NCBI GenBank assembly: GCA_041650995.1
Contig: JBAZJZ010000003.1
Location: 22,662-86,661, forward strand
Direction: 5' to 3'
Source of the DNA: Patescibacteria group bacterium
GTDB lineage: Bacteria > Patescibacteriota > Patescibacteriia > XYB2-FULL-38-15
Length of the DNA stretch: 64,000 nt
In this document: positions 1,220-63,175 of the stretch, in pieces
Position numbering within the stretch: the first letter of the stretch is position 1
Layout of the letters: each line of letters starts with the position of its first letter
Position numbers and translations under genes: made by a program
Notes under the pieces: generated by a model
What the model was told of the DNA's origin: nothing
Seen by the model: only the letters and a program-made list of their open reading frames with translations
The model's database searches: none

Positions 1220-1248
1220 TTGACATTATCTATAAATTGTGTTATTTT
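1220..1248 (+). promoter_or_regulatory. Sigma70-like promoter for rnpB (TTGACA-17 nt-TATTTT, with TGT immediately upstream of the -10)
   Basis: TTGACA at 1220-1225, 17-nt spacer, TATTTT at 1243-1248, about 25 nt before the RNase P RNA P1 helix. Confidence 0.5.
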
Positions 1249-1271
1249 AAGAGATATTTTGGTACCTTAAA

Positions 1272-1738
1272 ATTTATCCGAGTAATGGGTAATCGCTCTC
1301 ATTTTTCCGTTTAAGATCGGGGAAAAGGGGGAGGAAAGTCCGGACACCGTTTCGACATAAAGTCGAAAGAGAGATAGTCGCTAACAGCGACGGGGAGTAT
1401 GCATTGTTGTTTGTGTTGCGTCTGCCGTTTACGCGGCGGGGGCAGCTTAATCGAACATCATTTGATGAAGCCCACGGACAGTGCAACAGAAAATATACCG
1501 CTCGAATCCCGACGAAAGTCGGGGTGAGACCCCGCAGTATTGCGGGGCGGGTAAGGTTGAAATCGTGAGGTAAGAGCTCACGCGGGACAGCCTGGTGACA
1601 GGCGCCGTGGAAAACACCTATCCGGTGCAAGGCAAAAATAGCCGCTTGAGGTTGCGAGCAATCGTGATCCCAGATAGATGATTACCGTTTCGCATCATTG
1701 CGGGATACAGAATCCGGCTTATAGTTACTCGGATAAAT
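1272..1738 (+). ncRNA. rnpB: RNase P RNA (bacterial type)
   Basis: Conserved P4 strands GGAGGAAAGTCCGGAC (about 1327-1342) and ACAGAATCCGGCTTA (1708-1722). AGTGCAACAGAAA motif present. Terminal P1 pairing ATCCGAGTAA (1276-1285) with TTACTCGGAT (1725-1734). Confidence 0.8.
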
Positions 1739-4867: not shown

Positions 4868-6013
4868 ATGAATGTCGGCATTGACGTAAGATCATTACTT
4901 GAAAAAGAGCGGAGTGGCGTTGGGGAGTATACGTATGAACTCTTGAACGCCATTTTTAATATTGATAAAGAAAATCAATATTATCTTTTTTATAATTCCT
5001 TTAAAAAAGTTGGAGATAATTTTTTGGCAGAGTGGAAAAAACATCAGAATGTTCATTTTTGTGGATTTGGTTGGCCGAACAAATTATTGAATTTTTGTTT
5101 TAAATTTTTGAAGCGGCCCAGGGTTGATAAGACAATATTGCCAAAAGGTAAAATTGATTTATTTTTTATTCCAAATCTAAATTTTATTGCTCTATCGTCT
5201 GGCCTCCGAAAAATAATCACGGTTCACGATTTATCTTTTGAATTTTTTCCGAAATTTTTTTCTTGGAAGCGGCAATTATGGCATTGGTTTATAAATCCGC
5301 GCAAATTAATCAGCGGCGCAGATAAAATTATCGCCGTTTCGGAAAATACAAAAAGAGATTTGATTAATTTTTATAAAATTCCCGCGGAAAAAATAAAAAT
5401 AATCTATTCCGGCGTCGCCTGCCGTGAAAATGTTTTAGATATTGACGAAGTTAATAAAAAATATAATTTGCCAGATAATTTTATTTTATTTTTGGGGACG
5501 CTTGAACCAAGAAAAAATATTGATGGTCTGGTCCGCGCGTTTGAAATTTTAAAATCTTATCAGCCTATTGGCTTATCTGCTTATCAGCTGGTAATTGTCG
5601 GTCCGCGGGGGTGGCTTTATAAAAAAATATTGGCCCGCGCGGAAAAAAGTCCGGCGCGCGATGATATCAAATTTATAAATTATATTTCTCCCGAAGAAAA
5701 ATTTTCTTTTTATAAATTGGCCAAACTTTTTGTCTACCCGTCTTTCTATGAGGGATTTGGATTTCCTCCATTAGAAGCGACCCGAGCCGGAACGCCGGCA
5801 ATTGTAAGTTCAGTTTCATCTTTGCCCGAGGTTATCGGCGAAGCGGCTTTGATGGTTGATCCAAATAATCCGGCCGAGCTGGCAAAAGTAATGGCTGAAT
5901 GTTTGACCGATGAAAATCTACGCGCTACCTTGATTGAAAAAGGCAAAGCGCAAGCGGAAAAATTTAGCTGGACAAATGCCGCGAGGGAATTTTTGTCGCT
6001 AATTAATCAGTAA
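4868..6013 (+). CDS. Glycosyltransferase family 4
   Basis: C-terminal FVYPSFYEGFGFPPLEATRAGTPAIVSS (E-x7-E GT4 motif). Confidence 0.7.
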   Translation: MNVGIDVRSLLEKERSGVGEYTYELLNAIFNIDKENQYYLFYNSFKKVGDNFLAEWKKHQNVHFCGFGWPNKLLNFCFKFLKRPRVDKTILPKGKIDLFFIPNLNFIALSSGLRKIITVHDLSFEFFPKFFSWKRQLWHWFINPRKLISGADKIIAVSENTKRDLINFYKIPAEKIKIIYSGVACRENVLDIDEVNKKYNLPDNFILFLGTLEPRKNIDGLVRAFEILKSYQPIGLSAYQLVIVGPRGWLYKKILARAEKSPARDDIKFINYISPEEKFSFYKLAKLFVYPSFYEGFGFPPLEATRAGTPAIVSSVSSLPEVIGEAALMVDPNNPAELAKVMAECLTDENLRATLIEKGKAQAEKFSWTNAAREFLSLINQ

Positions 6014-11740: not shown

Positions 11741-11768
11741 ACCCGCCACAATAAGGCGGGTTTTGAGT
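11741..11768 (+). terminator. Rho-independent terminator
   Basis: AAACCCGCCacaataaGGCGGGTTTT hairpin with T-tract. Confidence 0.6.
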
Positions 11769-11818
11769 TGACGGTTTTAAGATTTTAAACTAAGTTTATG
11801 ATAGAAGGAGGATCAGCA

Positions 11819-12040
11819 ATGTGTCGATTCGGACAGGAAGGCGGAGCGCCGATCGGAGGCGGAGATTCTTCCATGACGGAGAGGCCGGATGCGCCGAATT
11901 GGCAGGAGGCCAACGAATATCTGCGGAGGATGCTCGGTCCGAGGGCCTATGCCAATTTGAGGTTCAATCGGAGGGAACTTTCGATGCGCGACGCAGAGCT
12001 CATTGTTCGGCGATACGGCGGATCGAAGGACAAAAAATAG
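11819..12040 (+). CDS. Hypothetical small protein (73 aa) in GC-rich islet
   Basis: Strong RBS GAAGGAGGA 7 nt before the ATG. GC-rich codons contrast with the flanking genes. Confidence 0.35.
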   Translation: MCRFGQEGGAPIGGGDSSMTERPDAPNWQEANEYLRRMLGPRAYANLRFNRRELSMRDAELIVRRYGGSKDKK

Positions 12041-12049
12041 GGGACGGAC

Positions 12050-12268
12050 ATGAACATCGGCCAATGGATCGAGAAGGTTCGTAATTCGCCAATCGGGCGG
12101 ACTCTTCTCGTACCAGTACGTACTCCAGGCGCGATAGTCAATTTCGTCTGGCAGACGTTTTCATACTGGCTGGACGAGCGGAACGCGAAGCGTGGCGTGA
12201 CACTTGATGTTGAGAGTGTTCGCCAGCGGGGCGAGCCGTTTCTGCCGGATCCGAGATGCCATCACTGA
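12050..12268 (+). CDS. Hypothetical small protein (72 aa) in GC-rich islet
   Basis: Starts 10 nt after the previous stop. Same GC-rich composition. Confidence 0.3.
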   Translation: MNIGQWIEKVRNSPIGRTLLVPVRTPGAIVNFVWQTFSYWLDERNAKRGVTLDVESVRQRGEPFLPDPRCHH

Positions 12269-12328
12269 CGTGAGAGAGGGGGGGCGAGTGGACCAAGGGT
12301 TCACTCTTTTTTTATTGTAACAAAGATT

Positions 12329-12654
12329 TATTCTATTTTTCTGCCATGAATCATTATCTGTATAAAAGCCGTTTGCTCAAATCCATGGCCAAAAAATGAT
12401 AAGCGGCCGGCCATTTTATAAAAATCGTCTAAATCCACGCCGCGTTCTTTGGCTAGATCTTCGAATTCGTTTATTAATTGCAGAGTAGTAACTTCTCCTT
12501 CAGTTATTGCTTCTAAGACATTGCCGCCGCGTTCTTTGATTATTTTTTTAACTCTTGTTCATGCCGAATGGCAATTTCTTTAGTTAATTCGACACCGCGT
12601 CTTGCATTAGCCATATTATCTTTTTGTTCATGTATTTTTCTCTCACCTTCCATA
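12329..12654 (-). pseudogene. Small ORF interrupted at an A7 homopolymer (possible frameshift or pseudogene, about 105 aa if fused)
   Basis: Minus-strand ORF MEGERKIHEQKDNMANARRGVELTKEIAIRHEQELKK ends with a stop directly after A_AAA_AAA. A -1 frame continues IIKERGGNVLEAITEGEV...GRKIE to 12329. Confidence 0.3.
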
Positions 12655-20610: not shown

Positions 20611-20666
20611 CATTTTCCTCTTGGCATTTTAATTGATAGTTTGTATCAAAAAGGGATTTTTTTGAT

Positions 20667-20692
20667 TTATTTTAAGCGACGAAAGTCGTTTT
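20667..20692 (+). terminator. Hairpin terminator after the LCP gene
   Basis: GCGACgaaaGTCGT followed by TTTTAG. Confidence 0.4.
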
Positions 20693-20713
20693 TAGTTTTC
20701 TAAAATTTTATCT

Positions 20714-20748
20714 TGACAAGAATTTTTTTCAATGATAATTTATTGATA
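20714..20748 (+). promoter_or_regulatory. Sigma70-like promoter (TTGACA-16 nt-ATAATT)
   Basis: Consensus -35 at 20714-20719, ATAATT after a 16-nt spacer, upstream of the Cys-rich peptide gene. Confidence 0.4.
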
Positions 20749-20808
20749 TTGTGTTTATGGCGTAAAGTGGGGGAAAGCTCAAGCCGAGGGAAGGAGAGGG
20801 AAGAAAGA

Positions 20809-21072
20809 ATGACGACAAGAACGATTCTCGCTGAGGCCAAGCCGTTGGGGCATCCTTGCGGCCATTGCCGCACTCGCGGAACGTGCGGTTGTGACGTCTG
20901 TGTTCAAGGAGGCGGAGTTTGCGGGGAGTGCGGCGGACTCCGCTACTTCGTTCCTCCAACCACCATTTCCATGGATGAGTTCGATCCTCCACGAGAGGAG
21001 CCTCTTGCCAGAGTGGTCCTCGCCCGGCGGCCGAAGAAGCCACCGTTCGGGAGGAGGGTGGCTCGTCGCTAA
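20809..21072 (+). CDS. Cys-rich small protein (87 aa; 8 Cys in CGHCRTRGTCGCDVCVQGGGVCGECGG)
   Basis: RBS-like GGAAGGAGAGGGAAG before the ATG. Very GC-rich codons. Confidence 0.4.
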   Translation: MTTRTILAEAKPLGHPCGHCRTRGTCGCDVCVQGGGVCGECGGLRYFVPPTTISMDEFDPPREEPLARVVLARRPKKPPFGRRVARR

Positions 21073-21217
21073 TCAGCGCTTGATGCCGCGATCGCGGTAA
21101 GCGCAGCGCTTAAAGTCGTTTGGAGGAAATCGAAAAGTCCGAAGGGAAACAGACAAAAATTGTCGTGTCGCGCTCTGGTGCTTGCATCAGGGCGTTTTTT
21201 TATTTTTAATTTATAAA

Positions 21218-21249
21218 AAAACCGCAAGACAGGTGTCTCGCGGCGGACT
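21218..21249 (-). terminator. Rho-independent terminator (minus strand)
   Basis: Minus-strand hairpin CCGCGAGACAcctGTCTTGCGG followed by TTTTTTTAT. Confidence 0.4.
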
Positions 21250-21329
21250 CTCCTTAATCCCCGTTTTATCTCTCAAGCGGGTTTGCCCTGACTCAAGTGG
21301 TTTCTAGGATTTCTTCTTGAGAAATCCTC

Positions 21330-21575
21330 TTATTTTGGATGGCGCAGGTTGTCCTTCCCGCAAAAGGGGCAATGAGTGACGTTTTCCAGGTAGCCAGACT
21401 GGCCGCCGTCTTCCCGCTTGCTCTCTTCGTAGCCGCAATGCGGACAGACGAGACAGTATTCGTCGACGATACATTGATAGTTGGCGAAATGGCGCTCGGA
21501 ATTCACGTCGCCGACGTAAAGACACTTGCAGTCTTTATGGCACTTCGGACACTTTGGTTTCGTTTCGACCATCAT
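21330..21575 (-). CDS. Double zinc-ribbon small protein (81 aa)
   Basis: CPKC...CKC, CPHC...CPFC pairs. Co-oriented and 15 nt downstream of the 101-aa ORF. Confidence 0.45.
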   Translation of the reverse strand: MMVETKPKCPKCHKDCKCLYVGDVNSERHFANYQCIVDEYCLVCPHCGYEESKREDGGQSGYLENVTHCPFCGKDNLRHPK

Positions 21576-21592
21576 TTTCCCTCCTTTTTCTA

Positions 21593-21895
21593 TCTCTTGC
21601 CCTTGGGGTAAATGTAGCCCCGGTTGCCGTTCGGCAGGACGAAAGAGACTGTTCCGTCGTCCGTTTTTTTGATTAGCAGGTTTTTTCCCAGAGTGAAGTT
21701 TGAGTTGGGAAGATTTTTCCAGGGTCCGCGTTCGGCCGCGAATTGGCGGGCGAAATTCGCGAGCGTGAAGTGGACGAGAATGCCTTCCGGAAAAACCTGC
21801 GTGATGGTTCCCCGGAAAGTGAATCCGTCAGTCTGACAGGTTATCATCACCCGGCCGCAAAGGCCACTTCGGTCAATCAGTTCTCCGAGTGTCAT
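21593..21895 (-). CDS. Hypothetical protein (101 aa)
   Basis: Strong RBS AAGGAGG 5 nt before the ATG at 21895. The track ORF extends to 21943. Confidence 0.4.
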
Positions 21896-21929
21896 TGGTT
21901 CCTCCTTTACCAAAAGGCCCTTGATCAAT

Positions 21930-21966
21930 ATATTTAAGTTCAAATTTTTTAAAATGTCAAGGGATC
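21930..21966 (-). promoter_or_regulatory. Sigma70-like promoter (minus strand) TTGACA-17 nt-TTAAAT
   Basis: The reverse complement reads cccTTGACAttttaaaaaatttgaacTTAAAT, just upstream of the 101-aa ORF. Confidence 0.4.
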
Positions 21967-22065
21967 GCGTCCGGCGCGCTATTTCGTGATATAATAAAAA
22001 CGTTGTTACCTTTTAAATTTTAAAACGTAGATAAGAATAGAAGCTTCTTTAATTCCGGAATTAAT

Positions 22066-22632
22066 ATGGATCCAAACCAAGAAAAACAAATCATTAAAGC
22101 CTGCCAAGCCGGAAATTTTGAGGGTTTTGGTGAGCTCTACGAAGTGTACGTTAAAAAAATATACAGCTTTGTTTTTTACAAAACATATCATAAAGAAACG
22201 GCCGAAGATATTGTCTCGATAGTTTTTATGAAAGCTCTGGAAAATATCGGCTCCTATAAACCCGGCCGCGGGAGTTTTTCCGCCTGGCTTTACGGCATCG
22301 CTCGCCACGCCGTGGTTGATCATTTTCGTGCTGTCCGCCCGAGCGTTAACATTGAAGACGTTTGGGATTTGGCTGATGAGCAAAATTTAGAAATAGATCT
22401 TGACGCACGGGAAAAACTCAATGAAGTAAAAAAATATTTGGCAAAATTCAAGCCAACGCACCGCGAAATTATAATGATGCGTCTTTGGCAGGGATTGTCT
22501 TATCGGGAGATTTCAGAAATTATCGGATTCTCCGAGGCAAATTGCAAAATGATTTTTTCTCGCGAGATGGCAAAGCTTCGGGAGGAAATGGGAATAGTCG
22601 CGTTTTTACTTTTTATGTTTTTAAATATTTAA
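22066..22632 (+). CDS. ECF-type RNA polymerase sigma factor (sigma-70 regions 2 and 4)
   Basis: Region 2 (FSAWLYGIARHAVVDHFR) and region 4 HTH (LSYREISEIIGFSEANCKM). Extended -10 TGATATAAT upstream at about 21985-21993. Confidence 0.8.
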   Translation: MDPNQEKQIIKACQAGNFEGFGELYEVYVKKIYSFVFYKTYHKETAEDIVSIVFMKALENIGSYKPGRGSFSAWLYGIARHAVVDHFRAVRPSVNIEDVWDLADEQNLEIDLDAREKLNEVKKYLAKFKPTHREIIMMRLWQGLSYREISEIIGFSEANCKMIFSREMAKLREEMGIVAFLLFMFLNI

Positions 22633-22645
22633 TCTTAAAAAATAT

Positions 22646-24283
22646 ATGGAAAACTTAATCAAAGAAATAATGGACGAGTTATTTGCCATTGACCCGAGTT
22701 TGAAAAAATATCAAAAAGAATTGGAGGCGGCTACGGCTAAAATGATAGCCAACAAACCCGATGATAGGTTTGATGAAAATTTTCGGCAGGAATTGAAAAT
22801 GAAATTGCTCGCGCGGGCTGAAGAATTGGAAAAAGGAGAAAAAGTAAAATTTTCATTTTGGCGAAGTTTAAAATTTTGGCGGGGTTTTTCTTTGGCCGCG
22901 GTCGTGGCAGCGCTTGCCTTAATTGTCGTAATACCCGCGATTCAAAACGGTCAGTTTAGTTTATTTAATTTTAAAAGCGGCAGTCCGCTGTCTTTAATTT
23001 CCGGGACAATGAATATTGAAGAGGCGGGTGAGCGAGCTTTTGGCGATCTTGCTTCTTCCAGCCAGGCTTTAACTAATTTAGAATTAGGAGATTCATCAGA
23101 CGCTTATTATAGCGCGCCCACGCCCGCCGCCGCGCCGAAAACACAGTCTTCAACTTCGCGCGAAGAAATTCTCGCGCGTGAAGTTTCGGGGCTTGGTGGA
23201 GGTAGCGGAACGAACGCCGCCGCGCCGGACGTAAAAATGTTGCCACCCGAGTACGCGACAAAATATAATTATGTTTACATTGGCGAAGATTTTTCTTTCA
23301 CGGAAGAGAGTGTGGCCGTCTTAAAACGTCTTAAAAGTTATGGCAGTGAAAATCTCAGTTCGGTTTTAAACAATTTAAGCTTTGGACTTTTTGACGCGAG
23401 CAAATTAAGAAATGTTAAAGTTCAATCAATGTCTATTGCCGAGGATCGCGACGGGGGATACGTGGTAGATTTTAATCCTTATGAGGGCACGATTTCTTTT
23501 TACGAAAATTGGCAAAAAATAATGCCGGTTAATTATGAAACCCAGCCGCGACTTCGAGAGTCTGATGTTCCGACAGACGAAAAATTAATTGAGACAGCCA
23601 ATGATTTTTTGTCGCGCTTTGGAATTGACCGCGGAAATTATGGCACGCCAATTGTCGGCCAAAGCTGGAAATTGGGTTATGCCAATGTCCGGGACGAAGA
23701 TATTTGGATTCCTGACACGATGACCGTGCAATATCCGTTGCTCTTGGGCGGGAAGGAAGCTTGGGAGCAGGGCGGTTACGACCGAGCCGGATTTTCCGTT
23801 AACGTAAATATCAGAACAATGAAAGTCACGGGTCTTTACGGACTTACAACACAAAATTATCAAAGTTCAAATTACGCCGCGGAAACTGATAAAAATCGTC
23901 TCTTAAAATTCGCGCTGCAGGGAGATCTTTGGCCGCAGCCAACATATCCGGAAGAAAATTTTAAAGTGAAAGAAGTGGAAATAAAACTTGGCACGCCGAG
24001 CGTGCAATATATGAGATATTGGAAATATGAAGGAAATCAAAGCAGCGAACTTTTTCTTCCGGCTTTGGTTTTCCCGGTAATTGACAAGAGCCAGGCTGAC
24101 GAATATTTTACAAAAAAAGTGGTGGTAGTTCCGCTCGTTCGGGAAATTTTGGATAGCGCGGAAAGAGAAAACACCATTACGCCACCAGCAATTTTAGAAT
24201 ATAGAAAAGACATGGGGTCATCTTCATCTCAGATTTTAACTCCTACTCAGGAGCCCTTGCCGCCAGAGAAGGTTCAGAATTAA
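22646..24283 (+). CDS. Putative anti-sigma factor / membrane-anchored extracytoplasmic protein
   Basis: Immediately downstream of the ECF sigma gene. Short cytoplasmic N-terminus, a single TM (AAVVAALALIVVIPAI), and a large extracytoplasmic domain. Confidence 0.4.
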   Translation: MENLIKEIMDELFAIDPSLKKYQKELEAATAKMIANKPDDRFDENFRQELKMKLLARAEELEKGEKVKFSFWRSLKFWRGFSLAAVVAALALIVVIPAIQNGQFSLFNFKSGSPLSLISGTMNIEEAGERAFGDLASSSQALTNLELGDSSDAYYSAPTPAAAPKTQSSTSREEILAREVSGLGGGSGTNAAAPDVKMLPPEYATKYNYVYIGEDFSFTEESVAVLKRLKSYGSENLSSVLNNLSFGLFDASKLRNVKVQSMSIAEDRDGGYVVDFNPYEGTISFYENWQKIMPVNYETQPRLRESDVPTDEKLIETANDFLSRFGIDRGNYGTPIVGQSWKLGYANVRDEDIWIPDTMTVQYPLLLGGKEAWEQGGYDRAGFSVNVNIRTMKVTGLYGLTTQNYQSSNYAAETDKNRLLKFALQGDLWPQPTYPEENFKVKEVEIKLGTPSVQYMRYWKYEGNQSSELFLPALVFPVIDKSQADEYFTKKVVVVPLVREILDSAERENTITPPAILEYRKDMGSSSSQILTPTQEPLPPEKVQN

Positions 24284-24483: not shown

Positions 24484-24816
24484 TTAGTTTGTCTCTTCCG
24501 GCTGGCAGGCGCCAAGCGGCGTGCCGAAGAGCTTCGTGGCGAACGGCCCGGCCGCGATGATGCTTCGCTGCCTCTTCTCGGCATGGCTCTGGAGAGCCGT
24601 CTCGAGATGAGCCTTGAGGCCGATCTGTTCGTCCGCGGAGACTTGCATCACCGCGGCCAGACTGGCCAAAGCGCCAAGGCAGATCTCCCTGTCTGCCGGC
24701 AGCAGGTCTGTCGTGCCCATCATGATGTCGCCCTTCGCGATGGAAAAGAAGCAGCTCTGGCCGTCTTTTGTGAAAGTGATGACCAGGCTGTGCACCATGA
24801 GTTTGAAAGCACCCAT
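24484..24816 (-). CDS. Small Cys-containing protein, paralog A (110 aa), unknown family
   Basis: RBS GGAAGGAGG 6 nt upstream. Shares KLM..., ...CF(F/L)...KG(D/E)I... and (E/R)(I/T)C(L/F)..L..LA(A/V) blocks with the two ORFs upstream. Confidence 0.5.
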   Translation of the reverse strand: MGAFKLMVHSLVITFTKDGQSCFFSIAKGDIMMGTTDLLPADREICLGALASLAAVMQVSADEQIGLKAHLETALQSHAEKRQRSIIAAGPFATKLFGTPLGACQPEETN

Positions 24817-24845
24817 CTTTCCTCCTTCCTTTTCGCGAGTAGTTG

Positions 24846-25175
24846 CTAGTTCAACTGCTGCGCGGCCTCGGTGCGCAGGATGTCGTTGATGATCTTTTCC
24901 GTGAAGAAGTCGCGTCCGACAGCGACCATCGGTCGCGTAGCTCTCTCGTACTCATCGAAAGCCGCGTTCAGTTGGTCCTTGAGCTTGGCGCATTCGGGCT
25001 CTGGGATTTGCTCCAGGTAAGCCACGAACTTTAGGGCCGCAAGGCAGGATCTCCTGGTCGGCCACATGAAAGGAACAGCCGCGAGCTCGACCCTATCCTT
25101 CAGGATGGCGAACGAGCCGTAACAGCAGCCGACGCCGAAGTTGAATTCCAAGGTGTAGGTTGCCTTGTTCTTCAT
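24846..25175 (-). CDS. Small Cys-containing protein, paralog B (109 aa)
   Basis: RBS GGAGGG upstream. Same architecture, more divergent (GCCYGSFAIL...RRSCLAALKFVAYL). Confidence 0.45.
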   Translation of the reverse strand: MKNKATYTLEFNFGVGCCYGSFAILKDRVELAAVPFMWPTRRSCLAALKFVAYLEQIPEPECAKLKDQLNAAFDEYERATRPMVAVGRDFFTEKIINDILRTEAAQQLN

Positions 25176-25244
25176 TTTTTAACCCTCCCTCTTTGGTCCG
25201 TCCGAGCCTTTCGCGCGGGCGGCCTGATTCCAAGAACCCAAACT

Positions 25245-25499
25245 TTACGGTTGACGTGTCTCGGCGTCGTGTTTTCGGAAAGCTTCCTCCAGCTGTGCAC
25301 GGAGATTATTCTGCTCCTCCTCCGGGACACCGTTTGACACAGCCAGGTTTTCCAGGACGCGAAAGCAGGTTTCCTGGTCTGCTTTGACCGGCGGCGCGAT
25401 CGCAACCAAGATCTCGCCTTTCTGAACGATGAGAAAGCACGTCGAGTCGCCGTTCATCCAACTCACCGCCAAGGCATACCTCATGAGCTTTGCATCCAT
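25245..25499 (-). CDS. Small Cys-containing protein, paralog C (about 84 aa)
   Basis: ATG at 25499 with GGAGGG 9 nt upstream (the track start 25517 is TTG). KLMRYALAVSW...STCFLIVQKGEIL...ETCFRVLENLAV aligns with paralog A. Confidence 0.45.
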   Translation of the reverse strand: MDAKLMRYALAVSWMNGDSTCFLIVQKGEILVAIAPPVKADQETCFRVLENLAVSNGVPEEEQNNLRAQLEEAFRKHDAETRQP

Positions 25500-25552
25500 T
25501 TTCCCCATTCCCTCCAACCCTCGCTCGTTTGAGAGTACATTATTTTATATCA

Positions 25553-25646: not shown

Positions 25647-28600
25647 ATGAATGGTCAATTCGTGAAAGAATTTGTCTCCACAATTTCGGAAAAATATAAA
25701 ACCGGTCAGGCAAAAGAGATGGCCTATCGGCCGGCGCTTGAAAAACTATTTCAAGATATTACCGGCTTGAATGTGATAAACGACCCCAAGCGGAGCGAAT
25801 ACGGCGCGCCGGACTTTGTTTTTATAAAAGGTAAGATTGCCGCCGCTTATGCCGAAGCCAAAGACCTGGGTGTGTCGCTTGACGAAACGGAAAAGGGCGA
25901 GCAGATGGCACGTTATTTTGGTTATCCGAATTTAATTTTGACAAATTGTTTGGAGTTTAGGTTTTTTAGAAATGGAGAAAAATATGAAACCGTAAAAATT
26001 GCTGAAATAAAAAATAGCGAAATCGCGTCGGTTGAAGATAGTTTTAATCTTTTGGAAGATACACTCTTGGCATTTATCAAAGAAGCCAAAGAGCCGATTA
26101 AGTCCGGTGTTGTTCTCGCCAAAGTGATGGCCGGCCAGGCGCGGCGCATTCGCGACAATATCAAAAAATATTTAAAAGAGGGCGACGAAAAGAAAAATGA
26201 AAGTTTGATTGCCGTTTATAATACTATTAAAAAATTATTACTCGCCGATTTGGATCACGAAAAATTTGCCGATATGTACGCCCAGACAGTTGTCTACGGT
26301 TTATTCGCGGCTCGCTATCATGATAAAACGGCAGACACTTTTTCTCGTGGAGAGGCGCGCGATTTGGTGCCAAAATCCAACCCATTTTTACGTAAATTTT
26401 TTGACCACATTGCCGGAGAAGATTTTGACGAGCGCGTAGAGTTTATTGTCAATGAACTCTGCGAAGAATTTAAGCACGCCGATATTCAGGCGATCGTGCA
26501 TGATTATTACAAAGTGGAAAAGGACGACAGCCGCGACCCGATTGTTCATTTTTACGAAGATTTTTTGCAGGAGTATGATGCGGCCGAACGAAAAAAGATG
26601 GGAGTTTTTTATACCCCCTTGCCGGTGGTGTGTTTTATTGTTCGCGCGATTGATGATGTTTTGAAAAAAGAATTTGGTCTAAACGGTTTGGCTGATACTT
26701 CCAGAACGGAAATAAAAGGGTTGCAGGGAATGAAGGCAAAACAGTCGGTTCACAAAGTTCAAATACTTGATCCGGCGACCGGTACCGGCACATTTTTAAA
26801 CGAAGTGATTTTGCAAATTAAAAAATCATTTGTCGGACAAGAGGGCCGATGGTCAAGTTATGTTCGTGATGATTTACTGCCGCGGTTGCACGGATTTGAA
26901 ATAATGATGGCGCCGTACACCATCGCCCATCTTAAACTTTCCACGCTTTTGAAAGAAACTGGAGTGGATATAAAAGACGAACGTATAGAAATTTACCTCA
27001 CTAATTCTCTGGAAAAAGCGGATAAATATGATGATACGCTTTTTGCCGGTTTAGGTTTTGATAAAGCTATCACGGAAGAATCTCGTTTAGCCGGAAAAGT
27101 TAAAAATGATTTGCCAATAATGGTAGTGCTCGGCAATCCGCCGTACAATGTCAGCTCACAAAATAAAGGCGAATGGATCGGCGAGTTGATAAAAGATTAT
27201 AAAAAAGATCTGGATGAAAGGAATATACAACCTTTATCCGATGATTATATTAAATTTATCCGCTTCGCCCAATATCTTGTAGACAAAAATGGCGAGGGAA
27301 TTATTGGGATGATTACCAACAATTCTTACATTGACGGAATTACCCATCGCCAAATGCGTAAAAATCTTTTGGAAACTTTTGATAGTATTTATATTTTGGA
27401 TTTGCACGGCAATGCTAAGAAAAAAGAAACCGCGCCCGACGGCAGCGTTGATCAAAATGTATTTAGTATAATGCAAGGCGTGTCCATCGCGCTGTTTGTC
27501 AAAAAAGCAGGCAAGAAAAAATCACTCGGCACGGTTTATCACGCTGAATTATTTGGAAAGCAAAAAGACAAATACGAGGCGTTGAATAATTTTGATTTTG
27601 AAAAGATGAAATGGAATAAGATTGATTGCAAGGATCCGTATTACTTTTTTGTGCCAAAGGATTTTAGAGCAGAGGATGAGTATAAAGAGGGGATCAGCGT
27701 AACTAATTTATTTCAAAAATGGGCTTCGGGAGTTGCTACTGCGAAAGATGACCTGATAATAAAATTTTCAGTCGATGAGATCAAGGAGCTTCGCGCCAGT
27801 TTTAGTAGATATTCAGATCAAGAGATAGCGCAGAAATACCAAGTCGACCAGAAAAAGGTTGTTCAAGTCAGAAAGGATATGGATAACGTTATTGGCGAAT
27901 ACACCCCTATTTTATATCGACCATTTGACACAAGATATACCCTTTACTCTCCGAACAGTGAAGGCGTGTTTCAAAGACCAAGGCCAGAAATAATGAAGCA
28001 CTTGTTAAAAGACAATTTGGCAATTTTAACATGTAAACAACAGACTAGTTTTGATTTTCAGCATGTATTTTTGTCAGCGACAATTACAGATCGATGTGGT
28101 GTTTCATTACAAACCGGTGAAGTCGGATATGTTTTCCCTCTTTATCTTTATGCCGACGACGGATCAAAAATTCCGAATCTCAAAAAAGAAATTGTGGCTG
28201 AAATAGAAAAAATTGTCGGCAAGGTGACGCCGGAAAATGTTTTGGATTATATCTACGCCGTTTTGCACTCGCCGAGTTATCGCGAAAAATATAAAGAATT
28301 TTTGAAGATAGATTTTCCGCGGGTGCCGTATCCGAAAAATGAAAAGCGATTTTTCGCGTTGGCAAAATTGGGCGAGGAGTTGAGGCATCTGCATTTGTTG
28401 GAAAGTTCGAAGGTTGAAAAATTTATTACCACTTATCCCGAGGCAGGGGATAATTTGGTGGAAAAAGTTGTCTATAAAGATGGAAAAGTTTATATTAATG
28501 CTTCGCAATATTTCGGTGGCGTGCCGGAAATCGCCTGGAACTTTTCCATCGGCGGCTATCAGCCGGCGCAGAAATGGTTGAAAGATCGCAAAGGCCGCAA

Positions 28601-28697
28601 ACTCTCCAACGCCGACATTGAACATTATCAAAAAATTGTTGTGGCGTTGGTGGAGACGGATAAACTTATGAGAGGAATTGATAAAGTTAATAAATAA
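25647..28697 (+). CDS. Type IIG restriction enzyme / N6-adenine DNA methyltransferase fusion (MmeI-like)
   Basis: N-terminal PD-(D/E)xK-like GAPDFVF...AEAKD. Gamma-class MTase motif I ILDPATGTGTFL and motif IV VVLGNPPYN. Long C-terminal target-recognition region. 1016 aa. Confidence 0.7.
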   Translation: MNGQFVKEFVSTISEKYKTGQAKEMAYRPALEKLFQDITGLNVINDPKRSEYGAPDFVFIKGKIAAAYAEAKDLGVSLDETEKGEQMARYFGYPNLILTNCLEFRFFRNGEKYETVKIAEIKNSEIASVEDSFNLLEDTLLAFIKEAKEPIKSGVVLAKVMAGQARRIRDNIKKYLKEGDEKKNESLIAVYNTIKKLLLADLDHEKFADMYAQTVVYGLFAARYHDKTADTFSRGEARDLVPKSNPFLRKFFDHIAGEDFDERVEFIVNELCEEFKHADIQAIVHDYYKVEKDDSRDPIVHFYEDFLQEYDAAERKKMGVFYTPLPVVCFIVRAIDDVLKKEFGLNGLADTSRTEIKGLQGMKAKQSVHKVQILDPATGTGTFLNEVILQIKKSFVGQEGRWSSYVRDDLLPRLHGFEIMMAPYTIAHLKLSTLLKETGVDIKDERIEIYLTNSLEKADKYDDTLFAGLGFDKAITEESRLAGKVKNDLPIMVVLGNPPYNVSSQNKGEWIGELIKDYKKDLDERNIQPLSDDYIKFIRFAQYLVDKNGEGIIGMITNNSYIDGITHRQMRKNLLETFDSIYILDLHGNAKKKETAPDGSVDQNVFSIMQGVSIALFVKKAGKKKSLGTVYHAELFGKQKDKYEALNNFDFEKMKWNKIDCKDPYYFFVPKDFRAEDEYKEGISVTNLFQKWASGVATAKDDLIIKFSVDEIKELRASFSRYSDQEIAQKYQVDQKKVVQVRKDMDNVIGEYTPILYRPFDTRYTLYSPNSEGVFQRPRPEIMKHLLKDNLAILTCKQQTSFDFQHVFLSATITDRCGVSLQTGEVGYVFPLYLYADDGSKIPNLKKEIVAEIEKIVGKVTPENVLDYIYAVLHSPSYREKYKEFLKIDFPRVPYPKNEKRFFALAKLGEELRHLHLLESSKVEKFITTYPEAGDNLVEKVVYKDGKVYINASQYFGGVPEIAWNFSIGGYQPAQKWLKDRKGRKLSNADIEHYQKIVVALVETDKLMRGIDKVNK

Positions 28698-29576: not shown

Positions 29577-30443
29577 ATGAAAAAGGCGGGGGAGATACAA
29601 AGGAAATCGCTTTTGTATAAAAGCGGCGTGGAGTACGCCGACTATTGTATTAATCACGCCGAAGGCTGCTCACACGGTTGCAGGTTTCCTTGCTACGCCA
29701 TGATGATGAAAAAACGGTGCGGTGTGATAAATAGTTATGAAGATTGGATCAAGCCCAAAATAGTTGCGAACGCCTTGGAACTTTTGGATAAAGAAATTCC
29801 AAAATTGAAAGATAAAATTAAAGTTGTTCACCTTTGCTTCACAACTGATCCATTCATGTATAAGCAAAAAGAAATTTCCGATTTGACTTTGAAAATTATA
29901 AAGAGACTGAACGACGATAATATAAAGTGCACGGTACTGACAAAAGGTGTCTACCCCAAGGAATTAATTGACGTTGAAAAATACGGCGGAAATAATGAGT
30001 ATGCAATCACGCTCGTATCTTTGAATGAAGGATTTAAAAAAAGATTTGAGCCGGGAGCCGCGCCGTACGAAGATAGGGTAAAATCTTTAAAATATTTGCA
30101 TGACCATGGATTGAAAACCTGGGTAAGCATGGAGCCGTACCCAACGCCGAACTTAGTGGATCAGGATTTAAAGAAAGTTTTGGCAAAGATTAATTTTGTT
30201 GATAAAATTATTTTTGGGAAATTGAATTATAACATTAAGGTGACAGAATTTCAGGACAATAAAGATTTCTACGATGGTTGCGCAAAAATTGTTATAAATT
30301 TTTGTGAGAAAAATAATATTGGATATCACATTAAATACGGAACTCAGAAAAAAGACAACAAAAAAACGGAAAAAATTTTTCGAAAGGATTTTGTTTCCGA
30401 GAAACAGAGACGGGTTGATTGTTTAGAGCCAGTATATTTATAG
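29577..30443 (+). CDS. Radical-SAM-like protein with a non-canonical Cys cluster (C-x6-C-x3-C-x3-C; SplB/COG1533-like)
   Basis: CINHAEGCSHGCRFPCYAMM near the N-terminus, 288 aa, 28 nt downstream of the previous gene, same low GC. Confidence 0.45.
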   Translation: MKKAGEIQRKSLLYKSGVEYADYCINHAEGCSHGCRFPCYAMMMKKRCGVINSYEDWIKPKIVANALELLDKEIPKLKDKIKVVHLCFTTDPFMYKQKEISDLTLKIIKRLNDDNIKCTVLTKGVYPKELIDVEKYGGNNEYAITLVSLNEGFKKRFEPGAAPYEDRVKSLKYLHDHGLKTWVSMEPYPTPNLVDQDLKKVLAKINFVDKIIFGKLNYNIKVTEFQDNKDFYDGCAKIVINFCEKNNIGYHIKYGTQKKDNKKTEKIFRKDFVSEKQRRVDCLEPVYL

Positions 30444-32961: not shown

Positions 32962-33204
32962 TCGGTAATTAGTAATTGAAAAGCGGTCCGAGCGGCCGCT
33001 TTTTGGTTTATAAAATTTTTTGTGGTAAAATTATAAAATAAAAATAGTTTTAATTTTTAAATTTGGGAAATTATGAAAAAACTTTTTGAAGGAGGGACAA
33101 AAGGTCGAATAGATCCCGCAGCATTGCAGGACCGAATAGATCCCGCAGGATTGCGGGACAGGCTCTTTGAAAATTCCGCCTTTGGCGGGAAAGGAGAATG
33201 GAAA

Positions 33205-33798
33205 ATGAAGAAAGGGATCATGCTCGTGACGGCACTCGTTGGCGTGCTGGTTTTGGTCGGTTGGGGTTGCGGGAATTCCGCGGCGCCCACTGACACAAAC
33301 TCGGATATGAATGTTTCCGAGACTTCCTCAGACAGCGTGCCAGAAGTCACGTCCGACACGACCGGAGAAATTCCGGCCGGTTGGACAGAGTACAGGAACG
33401 AGCAGTGGGGGGTGAATTTCATTTACCCCGCGGGCTGGCAGTACCAAGAGTATAGCGAGACAGTTGAAGGCGAAGAGGTGGCGACCCTCGCTTTCTCAGA
33501 CCAGGAGTTGCCAGAAACTTTGCCGCCAGAACCTTTGTTTCCGATCATGGTTTTCCGCGACGCGAGGACCGTAGAAAGCGCAATGTCTGACTACACGGAG
33601 GCTGTTGCTGCGGAAGATATCACGCTCGGGAGTAGAGTAGTAAAAAAGATTATTTACTACTCTAATATTCTCGAACAGAACGACAGGGTCTATCTAATTC
33701 CTCTGCGTGATGGGATTTTGAAACTCTTTGTACCAGATAGTGCGAGTTACGTTTCCACGGCTGAAACCATGATTGCCAACCTTACTGAGACAGAGTAG
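33205..33798 (+). CDS. Putative lipoprotein (GC-rich)
   Basis: RBS AAGGAGA 7 nt upstream. Signal peptide with LVGWGC lipobox-like cysteine. The track ORF starts upstream at 33073. Confidence 0.45.
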   Translation: MKKGIMLVTALVGVLVLVGWGCGNSAAPTDTNSDMNVSETSSDSVPEVTSDTTGEIPAGWTEYRNEQWGVNFIYPAGWQYQEYSETVEGEEVATLAFSDQELPETLPPEPLFPIMVFRDARTVESAMSDYTEAVAAEDITLGSRVVKKIIYYSNILEQNDRVYLIPLRDGILKLFVPDSASYVSTAETMIANLTETE

Positions 33799-33808
33799 GA
33801 GACAGACA

Positions 33809-36388
33809 ATGGAAAAGTTCAAGATGGGCGCGCTGTGCCTGGTGTTGTGGTTTTTGTTGCCGCGCAATTCCGAGGCAGAAGAGTTTCTGTACCTGCCGAT
33901 TACCAGAACGCCGGTCATCACTTCAGGTTTCTGTGGTTACCGGACCGCGTCTGGCGCTTGCCATGGTGGTATTGACTATGACGTTCGCGACGACGGCGAT
34001 GGAATCTTCGCCGCAGCGGATGGCGTAGTTGAGGTTGCAGAAGATGGCTGGCTAAATACCTACCATGGGAGACGGGTGTATGGCAATTACGTACAAATAC
34101 TTCACGACAACGGCTATCGTACCATCTATGCCCACTTTAAAAGAGGCAGCCTGGAAGTCAGTGTGGGCGATGAGGTCAGTGTCGGTCAACTTTTAGGAAT
34201 TGGTGATAACTCTGGTTGGTCAACTGGCTCGCACCTGCACTTCGAAGTCCGCGATTCGAGCGGACGCAAGGTAGATCCTTACGGCGACAGCCCATCATAT
34301 CCAAACTGTGGCGCAAATCACCTTTGGGTAAATTGCCCACCAACAGTGTGGGTTGACGAGGACAGAGATGCCGACACATGGACAGTTGAAGAAGGCGACT
34401 GTGACGACACAAATCCCAACATCTATCCCGGCGCGGTAGAACGCTGCAACGGCGTGGATGACAATTGCGCGGATGGCGTGGACGAGGAACCAGCGGCGAG
34501 TTACGCTTGCCGCGACAGCGTGGACTGCACCATTGACGCCTGCATGGTTGGCGCGCACGTTTGTACCAACCGTCAAAATGACGCGGCTTGCGAAGACGGC
34601 GATCCCTGCACTACAAACCTCTGTATTATTCTGACCGGCTGTCGCGCGATTCCCAAGGACACGGACTTGGACGGTTTCGTGGATATTTCCTGCGGCGGCG
34701 ATGACTGCGACGATTCCAATATGGCCATCCGCCCTGATGCCGCGGAGAAGTGCAATAACATTGATGACGACTGCGACACGGAAACCGACGAAGACTGGCT
34801 GTTACTCGGAACCAGTTGTAATGTTGGCTTTGGCGAATGTCGGCGAAGCGGCATCTGGGTTTGCGAACCTCTGGAGCGCGCCACAGTCTGCGACGCCGAG
34901 TATATTTCTGGCACGCCGGAACTTTGCGACGGCCTGGACAATGATTGCGACACAGAGACTGACGAGGATTGGCCTGAGCTTGGCACGGCCTGCGGAATTT
35001 TCCCCTGCGACGGGACATATGTCTGTTCTCTTGGCGGCTCTGGTTCATACTGCAATGCCAGTCCTGGCATGCCTGAGACTTGCGACGGCCTGGACAATGA
35101 CTGCGATGGTGAAACCGATGAATCTCCGGCGGAATTTTCCTGCGGCGACGGAAATGACTGCACGGTTGATTCGTGCGTGCTTGGCGCATGCCGACATTTT
35201 TCGCGCGATCGCGACGGCGACACTCATGGCGACGACCTCTGTGGTGGTACCGATTGTAACGATCTTAACCCCGCGGTTTGGGAATACGCTTTCAGCGAAT
35301 CGCGGTTGACAAACTCGGCTGGAGATTCTAATTCCCCGGCCGTGGCGTGGACAGGTTCAGAACTTGGAATTGTTTGGGAAGATTGGCGGGCGGGCATTCC
35401 CAACGCGGAAATATACTTCGCCCGGGCAGACACTTCGCTCGCGAGAATTGGCGATGAAGTCAGAGTGACAAATGCCTCATGGGGATCGCGCGAACCGTCT
35501 CTGAGCTGGACTGGCTCAGAGTATGGTGTGGCTTGGTATGACCTTCGGGTTGACTCTCGTTCCGAAGTCTTCTTTACTCGGCTTGATTCTACTGGGCTGG
35601 AAATTGGCGATGATATCCAACTGACAGACCATTTTGCTCTTTCCGGCGCGAGTTATGAACTATCTCTCACCTGGACAGGAAGTGACTATGGCATTGTCTT
35701 TCAGGATAGCCGCCTTAGCTCAATGGATATTTTCTTCGTGCGGCTGGATTCCGGCGGGATAGCGATTGCTCCCGAAGCGCCTGCTATTTCAGACAGCGGA
35801 CCTGAGAGTTTTCCAGTTCTTGTTTGGACAGGGAGTCAATACGGTCTGGCTTACACTGTTTCAATCGACGGCTATCAGCAGATCTTCTTCGCGCGGTTTG
35901 ATTCTTCCGGTGTAAGAACAGGCGCCGTTACGAGAGTTGCCTCGTTTGATTCGGGCGGGAGATTCTACGCTGAAACAGTCGATCTCGTTTGGCAAGGCAG
36001 AGAGTTCGCTTTGGTCTGGACAAAGAACATGGCGAGCGGCGCGAGGGAGGTTTATTTCCGGAGATTGGACGCGGCTGGTGTACCACTTGCTCCTGAGGTT
36101 CTGGTTGCGACTAGTCCGGACATAATCTATCGCGTTGCCATCGCGTGGAATGGGAGAGAATACGGGGTTATTTGGCAAGAAAGTTCTGGCATGTTGGCCA
36201 ATGTTTACTTTGTCCGGCTAGCTGAAGCTGGCAGTAGGCTCGGTACGGTGATCCGGATTTCAAGTACTGCCAGAAATTCGGAAAAGGAAGTCGTGGTTTG
36301 GACCGGTCACGAGTACGTCATGGCCTGGTCGGACAATCGCGACAGCGATTGGGAGATCTACCTTGGTCGCGTCAGTTGCGGCTGGTAG
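33809..36388 (+). CDS. Secreted multidomain protein: M23 (LytM-type) peptidase, Cys-rich MopE-like repeats, and a 7-blade beta-propeller
   Basis: Signal peptide. M23 core HGGIDY...DG...GSHLHFEVRD. Seven copies of the C..DxDCDxxTDE motif. Seven WTGSEYGxxW...(F/Y)FxRLD repeats. 55-60% GC. Confidence 0.65.
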   Translation: MEKFKMGALCLVLWFLLPRNSEAEEFLYLPITRTPVITSGFCGYRTASGACHGGIDYDVRDDGDGIFAAADGVVEVAEDGWLNTYHGRRVYGNYVQILHDNGYRTIYAHFKRGSLEVSVGDEVSVGQLLGIGDNSGWSTGSHLHFEVRDSSGRKVDPYGDSPSYPNCGANHLWVNCPPTVWVDEDRDADTWTVEEGDCDDTNPNIYPGAVERCNGVDDNCADGVDEEPAASYACRDSVDCTIDACMVGAHVCTNRQNDAACEDGDPCTTNLCIILTGCRAIPKDTDLDGFVDISCGGDDCDDSNMAIRPDAAEKCNNIDDDCDTETDEDWLLLGTSCNVGFGECRRSGIWVCEPLERATVCDAEYISGTPELCDGLDNDCDTETDEDWPELGTACGIFPCDGTYVCSLGGSGSYCNASPGMPETCDGLDNDCDGETDESPAEFSCGDGNDCTVDSCVLGACRHFSRDRDGDTHGDDLCGGTDCNDLNPAVWEYAFSESRLTNSAGDSNSPAVAWTGSELGIVWEDWRAGIPNAEIYFARADTSLARIGDEVRVTNASWGSREPSLSWTGSEYGVAWYDLRVDSRSEVFFTRLDSTGLEIGDDIQLTDHFALSGASYELSLTWTGSDYGIVFQDSRLSSMDIFFVRLDSGGIAIAPEAPAISDSGPESFPVLVWTGSQYGLAYTVSIDGYQQIFFARFDSSGVRTGAVTRVASFDSGGRFYAETVDLVWQGREFALVWTKNMASGAREVYFRRLDAAGVPLAPEVLVATSPDIIYRVAIAWNGREYGVIWQESSGMLANVYFVRLAEAGSRLGTVIRISSTARNSEKEVVVWTGHEYVMAWSDNRDSDWEIYLGRVSCGW

Positions 36389-62665: not shown

Positions 62666-62675
62666 GAAAGACTTG

Positions 62676-62710
62676 ACAGTAACCGAAGATTACGGTAAGA
62701 TGAAAATCGG
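62676..62710 (+). promoter_or_regulatory. Sigma70-like promoter TTGACA-17 nt-TAAGAT
   Basis: Near-consensus hexamers about 80 nt upstream of the GC-rich small ORF. Confidence 0.45.
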
Positions 62711-62788
62711 TTGCTGTTTTTGTTTTGGCTCATACTGAGGGATGGGTCAAGCGGCCAAGAAGCCGTGAGAAAGGAGAGAAGGGAAGGA

Positions 62789-63007
62789 ATGGTGAATTCG
62801 CAATTGGGATGGAAAGTGGTCGTGCGAGATTCTGCAGGGGATATCCTGAAGGTGCACCGTCGCCTTTCGAAGGAGAAGGCGGAAGAGAAGAGGAGGCGCG
62901 CTCTGAAGCGTGGCTGCAAGGTCGAGATGACGGAAGAGCACCACGGCCGTTTCCGGCGGAGCGAGTCGTACGTCAACCGCCATCCCAAGGCGAGGCGGGC
63001 GGCCTAG
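62789..63007 (+). CDS. Small basic protein (72 aa) in GC-rich islet
   Basis: RBS GGAAGGA before the ATG. About 60% GC. Arg/Lys-rich. Confidence 0.35.
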   Translation: MVNSQLGWKVVVRDSAGDILKVHRRLSKEKAEEKRRRALKRGCKVEMTEEHHGRFRRSESYVNRHPKARRAA

Positions 63008-63175
63008 CCAGAAAGCGGGACAAGAACAACTAAAACCAAGACCCCGTTGCAAAAAGGGTGAATAACTCAATTGCCGGGGTCACTTTTATATCCAAAAGAC
63101 ATTGACAGATAAAATTTTTATTGGTAAAGTTATATAAATCAAGAGTATTTTATTTTTGATTTTTTATATAAAGAT

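Follow-up and report, generated by a model that had tools for sequence, protein, structure and literature searches.

What kind of genes occupy a short GC-rich islet in an otherwise AT-rich patescibacterial genome, and what holds them there? The question is raised by positions 20713-21966 of a 64,000-nucleotide stretch of Patescibacteria group bacterium contig JBAZJZ010000003.1 (hereafter the window), where three small open reading frames (ORFs) form two convergent transcription units: cys87 on the plus strand, followed by p101 and zn81, both on the minus strand. By comparing the window with related loci and contigs (labeled L001-L018), we arrived at a preferred reading, to which we assign a probability of roughly 0.5, that the islet is a lineage-restricted accessory cassette of small zinc-stabilized binding or regulatory proteins, rather than an artifact or a locus for a ribosomally synthesized and post-translationally modified peptide (RiPP).

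The compositional anomaly itself, which an earlier note made from the sequence had reported, was borne out by a computed GC profile. The window as a whole has 41.6% GC (300-nt windows, mean 0.416, sd 0.060), while the span 20713-21966 reaches 51.0%, the gene block 20809-21895 reaches 53.4%, and a peak of 60.7% lies over cys87 (z = 3.2 among 300-nt windows). The possibility that this contrast marks an assembly chimera is excluded by the recurrence of the same gene order in more than 15 independent assemblies, with contigs drawn from over a dozen separate samples: LytR, a metallophosphoesterase and a SIMPL gene (each present or absent depending on the relative), cys87, a shorter Cys-rich paralog termed cysB where present, the minus-strand genes zn81 (likewise optional) and p101, and then the genes for an extracytoplasmic function (ECF) sigma factor and its anti-sigma-like partner. 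The position of the islet is stable in all relatives, and only the gene content inside the region varies. The window and L007 carry cys87, zn81, and p101; L004-L006 carry cys87, cysB, zn81, and p101; and L001-L003 together with L010-L013 carry cys87, cysB, and p101 with no zn81. The stretch just upstream of the islet (20611-20808) is an indel hot spot when set against L001 (4499-6837), L003 (8712-10000), and L007, and the metallophosphoesterase and SIMPL genes that part lytR from cys87 in relatives are missing from the window.

All three genes are real and under purifying selection, as the conservation of their frames, starts, and promoters makes plain. The cys87 gene (20809-21072, plus strand) encodes a basic, soluble protein of 87 amino acids that is 100% identical to the NCBI hypothetical protein WC445_04090 [Patescibacteria group bacterium]; its mechanical ORF begins at a TTG at 20713, and the ATG at 20809, preceded by a purine-rich ribosome-binding site, is the start kept in homologs. 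On the opposite strand, p101 (21590-21895) encodes a basic, soluble protein of 101 amino acids and is the first gene of its operon, lying 14 nt upstream of zn81 (21330-21575), which encodes an 81-residue CPxCG-type zinc-ribbon protein; the second ATG of zn81 (21572) is probably the true start, giving 80 residues like the homolog P0014. Homologs were found at 61-83% identity for cys87 (among them four metagenome loci), at 45-98% for p101, and as one cluster at 85% for zn81. The ratio of nonsynonymous to synonymous substitution rates (dN/dS), measured against orthologs at synonymous divergences (dS) of 0.3-0.9, spans 0.07-0.24 over the islet, with values of 0.18-0.24 for cys87, 0.07-0.21 for p101, and 0.13 for zn81, a range like that of the flanking lytR and ECF sigma genes (0.09-0.15). 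Thus, the earlier suggestion of three small genes in two converging units withstands comparison with related genomes, in which the ORFs are conserved. In L007, the closest relative (p101 98% identical), matches to the zn81 ortholog fall in two reading frames (5516-5753), so that the gene is a pseudogene with a frameshift or else has been misassembled.

The codon usage of the islet sets it further apart from its surroundings. GC content at third codon positions (GC3) is 0.61, 0.66, and 0.65 for the three genes compared with 0.391 ± 0.038 for 40 other ORFs (z = 5.8-7.1), and the NNY codon family preference is reversed in favor of C-ending codons (TTC 0.85 vs 0.15, TAC 0.88 vs 0.26, AAC 0.73 vs 0.23, GAC 0.83 vs 0.28, and GTC 0.56 vs 0.17), with AAG likewise raised (0.59 vs 0.17) and CTC/CTG used in place of TTA/TTG. 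This signature is shared by the orthologs, which hold a GC3 of 0.48-0.69 next to neighbors at 0.36-0.44. Expression-linked codon bias was considered as a cause and ruled out, since the genes for GroEL, pyruvate kinase, and NusA show no C-ending preference and the excess is therefore not the expression-linked bias of this genome. Strong RNA structure was ruled out as well, with the islet mRNAs folding only moderately better than shuffled sequences (z = -2.3 and -3.2).

Whether this excess is decaying bears directly on another explanation, namely that the GC-rich stretch is the ameliorating relic of a single old transfer, with ORFs that have no function or with a structured RNA as the actual signal. 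Atypical codon usage is what such a relic would display, GC-rich patches of an AT-rich genome are often the sign of a structured RNA, the modest folding of the islet mRNAs points the same way, and RNase P RNA forms one of the GC peaks of this very window (bacterial class A, 1277-1737, plus strand, 181.8 bits). When synonymous changes were polarized by parsimony, cys87 showed slightly more changes from G or C to A or T than the reverse (14 vs 9), again in line with decay. However, p101 was balanced (12 vs 13), and GC3 persists even at dS near 0.9. From these counts, the equilibrium GC3 would be 0.62 for p101 and 0.52 for cys87, compared with 0.41 for the sigma gene used as a control, and the pooled share of changes toward A or T is 54% where about 70% would be expected for decay at sigma-gene rates (P about 0.02, on small counts). 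The GC3 excess of the islet thus appears to be maintained rather than decaying. In addition, no Rfam match was found in the islet, the frames have been held by purifying selection (dN/dS 0.07-0.24) through many synonymous changes, and start codons, ribosome-binding sites, and promoters are conserved. We consider the relic explanation very improbable, and its "no function" and "RNA only" versions largely refuted. If maintained, an excess of this kind at a genomic GC content of 41% would, in turn, offer a small and clean case for studying what holds codons off the genomic equilibrium.

The earlier note had counted eight cysteines within 25 residues of cys87; the Cys-rich character holds, and the count is seven cysteines (C17-C41) plus His19, arranged as C17-x-H19-C20-x5-C26-x-C28-x2-C31-x6-C38-x2-C41-G-G. 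This module is followed by a conserved [YH]F-P-(L/P)-T-x-I-S-x-x-EF segment, an acidic linker, and an Arg/Lys/Pro-rich C-terminal tail. In an alignment of 12 cys87 and cysB sequences, in which identity between the two groups is only about 35%, C17, H19, C20, C26, C28, C31, G36, C38, C41, and G43 are invariant, and the common eight-ligand pattern reads CxHC-x5..10-CxCxxC-x6..12-CxxC-x-G. Eight invariant ligands fit two tetrahedral zinc sites, and zinc binding is accordingly the most likely prediction for the module. Under the preferred reading, cys87 would present a 25-residue knuckle holding two zinc ions, a zinc-stabilized module through which it could bind another protein or a nucleic acid. 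The whole protein is basic and soluble (pI 9.4; no hydrophobic segment, with a maximum Kyte-Doolittle value of 0.97 over 15 residues). Its AlphaFold2 model is unusable (pLDDT 45, pTM 0.14).

Ligand number and spacing also bear on the proposal, made in the earlier note, that cys87 resembles a metallothionein, under which the protein would be a metal buffer or metallochaperone and the islet would serve metal homeostasis. The density of ligands is indeed high (seven cysteines and one histidine in 25 residues of cys87; ten cysteines and five histidines in zn81), and an M23 peptidase with MopE-type copper-binding motifs is encoded elsewhere in the window. Yet the number and spacing of the ligands fit two structural sites rather than a cluster, the ligands are confined to one module of an 87-residue basic protein, and more than half of cys87 consists of the conserved non-Cys segment and the basic tail, whereas a bacterial metallothionein of the SmtA/BmtA type is made almost entirely of a cluster able to take up 3-4 or more metal ions. 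Moreover, there is no Pfam metallothionein match at E <= 1, no metal transporter or sensor adjoins the genes in any related locus, and the cys87 promoter looks constitutive rather than metal-regulated. A metal-buffering function is therefore judged improbable, whereas the broader fallback of the earlier note, a metal-binding or regulatory role, is supported.

The same module also bears on the RiPP question. Small Cys- and Gly-rich peptides with GG motifs could be RiPP or bacteriocin precursors, two tandem paralogs (cys87 and cysB) occur in relatives as is often seen for precursor genes, and a radical SAM gene is present at 29577. That gene, however, is the nearest candidate modifying enzyme and lies 8.5 kb away, beyond a restriction-modification (RM) gene, in agreement with the earlier remark that no such enzyme is adjacent; it was not seen in L003, L004, or L005. 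No maturation enzyme (such as LanB/C/M, YcaO, or radical SAM), protease, or exporter (such as an ABC exporter with a peptidase domain) was found in the locus of any relative (about 15 related loci). The protein has neither a signal peptide nor a division into leader and core, and it carries a long basic tail. Its GG lies inside the invariant Cys module (QGGGVCGECGG), and it is the first 15 residues and the tail that vary, which is the opposite of most RiPP cores. A precursor role, which the earlier note had floated as speculative, is thus hardly credible.

The paralog cysB (about 63 residues) lies just downstream of the cys87 homolog in most relatives and is missing from the window and L007, and the cassette envisaged here would accordingly have lost cysB from this genome. 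It is an uncalled gene, located at 10282-10473 in L003, 7119-7310 in L001, 7494-7685 in L005, 251-442 in L012, and 447-620 in L013. Gene callers miss it and give spurious long overlapping or antisense ORFs in its GC-rich DNA instead; a called 203-residue ORF in L014-L016, for example, was rejected as an antisense frame of cys87/cysB.

Family searches place all three proteins outside known families. For cys87, Pfam gave no match at E <= 1 (and none at E <= 10 for the 12 cys87/cysB sequences), and PADLOC, PHROGs, and NCBIfam gave nothing. For p101, Pfam, PADLOC, PHROGs, and NCBIfam returned nothing significant (one chance-level PHROG match to a fibritin neck whisker, E = 0.01), and for zn81, Pfam gave sub-threshold zinc-ribbon matches only, with knuckle-level matches in PADLOC and PHROGs (E = 0.001-0.007). 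Profile searches of the PDB returned nothing significant. A four-sequence cys87 profile had matched the C-terminal half of uS9 at E = 0.025-0.4, which was taken as chance or compositional similarity because the hhalign probability was 5.9% and the match was lost with the 12-sequence profile, whose own best PDB match (bL32m, E = 0.05) is not significant. No fold match was found in BFVD, and no relatives were found in GTDB species representatives, IMG/VR, or phage and plasmid collections (searched with tblastn for phages and plasmids). A full-text literature search on cysteine-rich small proteins in Patescibacteria returned no papers, and a further search brought up nothing more specific than general treatments of horizontal transfer and of genomic islands in this group. 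The three families are tiny, clade-restricted, and have no homolog of known function.

At the level of motifs, the islet proteins can be compared with known systems. The class of CPxCG-related small zinc fingers comprises stand-alone proteins of <100 residues with paired Cys/His knuckles 7-40 residues apart, at least one of which reads CPxCG, CPxCx, or CxxCG. Most are annotated as hypothetical, some regulate through binding, and the characterized member Brz is a regulator; archaea have many such proteins, whereas in bacteria they are rare, at about 1.5% of small proteins (PMC2253796). Both Cys-rich proteins of the islet match this definition, zn81 through CPKCH (8-12), CPHCG (43-47), and CPFCG (68-72) at spacings of 35 and 25, in keeping with the zinc-ribbon character claimed for it earlier, and cys87 through CGHC (17-20) and CGECG (38-42) at a spacing of 21. 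The CPxCG class is a motif class rather than a homologous family, and neither zn81 nor cys87 has sequence similarity to Brz or any other characterized member; in contrast to the class, cys87 has an extra central CxCxxC and a histidine, which brings it to eight ligands in 25 residues. The islet proteins also invite comparison with modules that hold two zinc ions for protein-protein contacts. DnaJ-type CXXCXGXG zinc domains and Bacillus subtilis anti-TRAP do so within a small module. The likeness is confined to the motif level, in Gly-rich knuckles (CSHCRGRR...CTECEGLG in cysB; CGHC...CGECGG in cys87), and unlike the four CXXCXGXG repeats of PF00684, which form two interleaved zinc sites, cys87 and cysB have three knuckles with a CxC and a histidine and match DnaJ in neither Pfam nor the PDB. 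A further comparison is with the Lar-type zinc-ribbon proteins of restriction alleviation (NCBIfam TIGR03655), since zn81 is a small zinc-ribbon protein in a region with RM genes and has a weak match to that model. The assignment of zn81 to that family was rejected, as its score of 14.1 bits (cut-off 39.6) covers 11 residues of one knuckle and gives no evidence of membership.

The minus-strand pair extends the picture beyond a single Cys module. The structural model of p101 (pLDDT 75) comprises an N-terminal helix and a small beta-barrel, and an exhaustive HMMER search of its profile over 1.84 billion cluster representatives returned seven genuine clusters only; a LysM-repeat protein and a 2399-residue repeat protein among the matches were judged spurious. 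The zn81 protein contains ten cysteines and five histidines, among which C8-P-x-C11, C17, C43-x-H45-C46-G, C68-P-x-C71, and H78 (80-residue numbering), hence seven cysteines and one or two histidines as ligands, are invariant at 44-47% identity. A p101 gene in L008 and in L018 is likewise followed by a gene for a larger protein, whose N-terminus matches the zn81 module at 40-47% identity. In L008, this larger protein has 274 residues, with the zn81 module at its N-terminus and more Cys-rich knuckle stretches after it, and is followed downstream by a p101 paralog and then a protein with four transmembrane (TM) segments; L009 has p101 with the TM protein. In L008 and L017/L018, these genes lie in clusters of small genes with a GC3 of 0.66-0.88. 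The succession of p101 and a zn81-type gene is found in the window clade, L008, and L017/L018. The two are thus operon partners whose pairing recurs in three different genomic contexts, in some cases with a p101 paralog and a small 4-TM protein added, and we infer that they probably work as a complex.

The promoters of both units are conserved as well. The cys87 promoter (20713-20741, plus strand) consists of a perfect -35 box, TTGACA, a 14-nt spacer, and an extended -10, TGaTAATTT, and it is identical base for base in eight related loci, the most divergent of them (L013) included. Its class, TTGACA-N14-TGnTAWWWT, has five matches in the window where 0.36 would be expected. One of the five, a perfect TTGACA-N14-TGtTATTTT, lies about 30 nt upstream of the RNase P RNA gene (within 1220-1737, plus strand). 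The promoter of the p101-zn81 operon (21932-21960, minus strand) has TTGACA at 21960-21955, a 17-nt spacer, and TTAAAT at 21937-21932; it is kept as cTTGAC(A/T)-N17-TTAAATATATTGAT in the window, L007, L003, L005, L012, and L001, and the p101 loci of L008 and L009 likewise carry TTGACAA. The near-consensus promoters described earlier are thus confirmed as to their -35 boxes, which are perfect in both, while the -10 boxes depart from consensus. Judged by their sequence, both would be strong, housekeeping-like promoters of the sigma-70 type.

The two units converge, as had been noted, on intrinsic terminators that face each other across an A/T tract common to both. The cys87 terminator (21170-21205, plus strand) has a hairpin at 21170-21195 with an 11-bp stem and a T7 run (-16.7 kcal/mol, z = -5.2), and the p101-zn81 terminator (21212-21244, minus strand) has one at 21244-21221 with a 10-bp stem and a T7 run (-17.0 kcal/mol, z = -5.3). 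A further AU-rich hairpin follows directly after the zn81 stop codon (21306-21328, minus strand; -10.3 kcal/mol, z = -3.9). Taken together, the islet would consist of two convergent units, each with a strong sigma-70-like promoter and a terminator of its own, encoding three small, soluble orphan proteins that would reside in the cytoplasm.

These promoters also bear on the possibility that the three proteins belong to the regulon of the adjacent ECF sigma factor and act as Cys/zinc effectors of redox or envelope stress, with holdase-like and thiol-switch proteins as examples. Redox switches built on Cys/zinc modules are classical, as in RsrA and Hsp33. The sigma gene (22066-22632) adjoins the islet and is divergent from p101, with which it has a 170-bp control region in common, and it is followed by the gene for a membrane anti-sigma-like partner (22646-24283), a 545-residue protein in which residues from about 80 to 100 appear, from the sequence, to form a hydrophobic segment that spans the membrane. 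In all loci of the window clade, cys87, cysB, and p101 adjoin these two genes; L013 is no exception, although its p101 is only 45% identical. Nevertheless, both islet promoters are of the sigma-70 type, and the sole ECF-like motif, TGTTAC-N16-CGTA at 22004-22029 (plus strand), lies before the sigma gene itself; it has no other copy in the window and none before the islet genes. Genes like p101 and zn81 occur without a sigma gene in L008, L009, and L017/L018. The adjacency may reflect shared ancestry, with lytR and other neighbors being equally syntenic. We therefore regard membership in an ECF regulon as unlikely. The candidate role of cys87 as a zinc-binding anti-sigma (ZAS) factor was likewise rejected, since it lacks the HxxxCxxC motif and has instead H15-P-C17-G-H-C20, in which H15 is not conserved. 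As for the sigma gene, the conserved ECF-like motif is preceded by an extended -10 of its own (TGATATAAT, 21987-21995), and the motif is probably an autoregulated promoter.

The genomic company kept by the islet genes suggests where a binding or regulatory function might be exercised. A second islet (24484-25517, minus strand), 2.6 kb from the first, carries three small genes of 110, 109, and about 84 residues with a TTGACA promoter of their own; the 110- and 84-residue products are paralogs, and GC3 is 0.67-0.79. Divergent from it lies a Type IIG RM gene (25647-28697, plus strand; PADLOC 1.7e-283). In L004 (2842-6681) and L005 (333-4172), the second-islet family is divergent from a non-orthologous Type IIG gene (28% identity over 140 residues), and in L008 (1525-4067), two of its members are divergent from a Type I HsdM gene accompanied by a reverse transcriptase, with the family here adjoining the p101/zn81-type genes. 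The intergenic promoters are kept across all three RM pairings, which suggests that a small-protein module borders a site of RM gene exchange. Larger clusters of about ten small genes, rich in GC3 (0.63-0.88) within low-GC surroundings, were found in L008 (3210-7506), L009 (2172-3231), and L017/L018; they also hold three paralogous "MKPIxLT" CxxC proteins (L008, L009) and small zinc-ribbon-like ORFs, with no Pfam match on record.

These observations are consistent with a pool of small GC3-rich genes that would travel together, with content that varies between close relatives and often beside interchangeable RM genes, and their products are therefore most likely small proteins that regulate or inhibit, acting in an accessory or conflict region of variable content. 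Patescibacteria have been reported to carry many genomic islands, acquired RM systems among them, and the islet resembles these in its atypical GC content and codon usage within a streamlined genome, in content that varies among relatives, and in its exchangeable RM neighbors (PMC12455944). It differs from them in being about 1.1 kb long (with a 1.0-kb second islet), in being old and syntenic, in a GC3 that appears to be maintained, and in having no integrase or repeats. Of the usual marks of a mobile island, atypical composition was found; no recombinase or integrase was found in the islet, no meaningful flanking repeats, mobile-element borders, or tRNA-edge insertion signature was found around it, and its position is stable in all relatives. 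A bolder version of this reading, in which the GC3-rich families (cys87/cysB, p101/zn81 with an optional p101 paralog and 4-TM protein, the tandem second-islet family of 84-116 residues, and the "MKPIxLT" CxxC proteins) form one modular system at RM or conflict loci, for instance as controllers or inhibitors, and in which selection, or else biased gene conversion in the course of frequent exchange, actively preserves their codon composition, is tentative and, in our estimate, rather doubtful.

Several points weigh against the accessory-cassette reading as a whole. There is no homolog of known function and no match in Pfam, NCBIfam, PHROGs, PADLOC, or the PDB from which a function could be transferred. 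With the model of cys87 unusable, its putative two-zinc fold is suggested by the ligand count alone. The lack of an integrase, flanking repeats, or a tRNA edge, together with long synteny (dS near 0.9), makes "mobile" a weak label, and the searches of IMG/VR, phages, plasmids, and GTDB representatives point to no donor or vehicle. Only the second-islet family is linked directly to RM or conflict genes; for p101/zn81, the link holds in two of about four independent contexts. The polarized substitution counts behind the maintenance of GC3 are also small (23-31 per gene). On present evidence, the products are conserved hypothetical proteins of modest practical importance. Should the cassette reading be correct, it would add three uncharacterized families of miniproteins, including one unusual eight-ligand Cys7His module and a barrel/zinc-ribbon pair, to what little is known of the small proteome of the candidate phyla radiation (CPR)/Patescibacteria, and it would point to a pool of small genes, distinct in composition, whose members are reshuffled among close relatives beside exchangeable RM genes.

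Beyond the two islets, the window contains further GC-rich regions. Two stretches, 11751-12350 and 62701-63100, rise to 57-59% GC with no large ORFs and no Rfam match, and they harbor small GC3-rich ORFs at 11798-12040 (80 residues), 12050-12268 (72 residues), and 62789-63007 (72 residues, GC3 0.77), the last of which combines a TTGACA-N17-TAAGAT promoter near 62672 with a purine-rich leader resembling that of cys87. All of these ORFs may belong with the islet genes in one class of small GC-rich genes. A third GC-rich region (33073-36388, plus strand; GC3 0.56) encodes a 241-residue protein with no Pfam match and the peptidase mentioned above, an 871-residue protein with a Peptidase_M23 domain and four putative copper-binding motifs of the MopE type.

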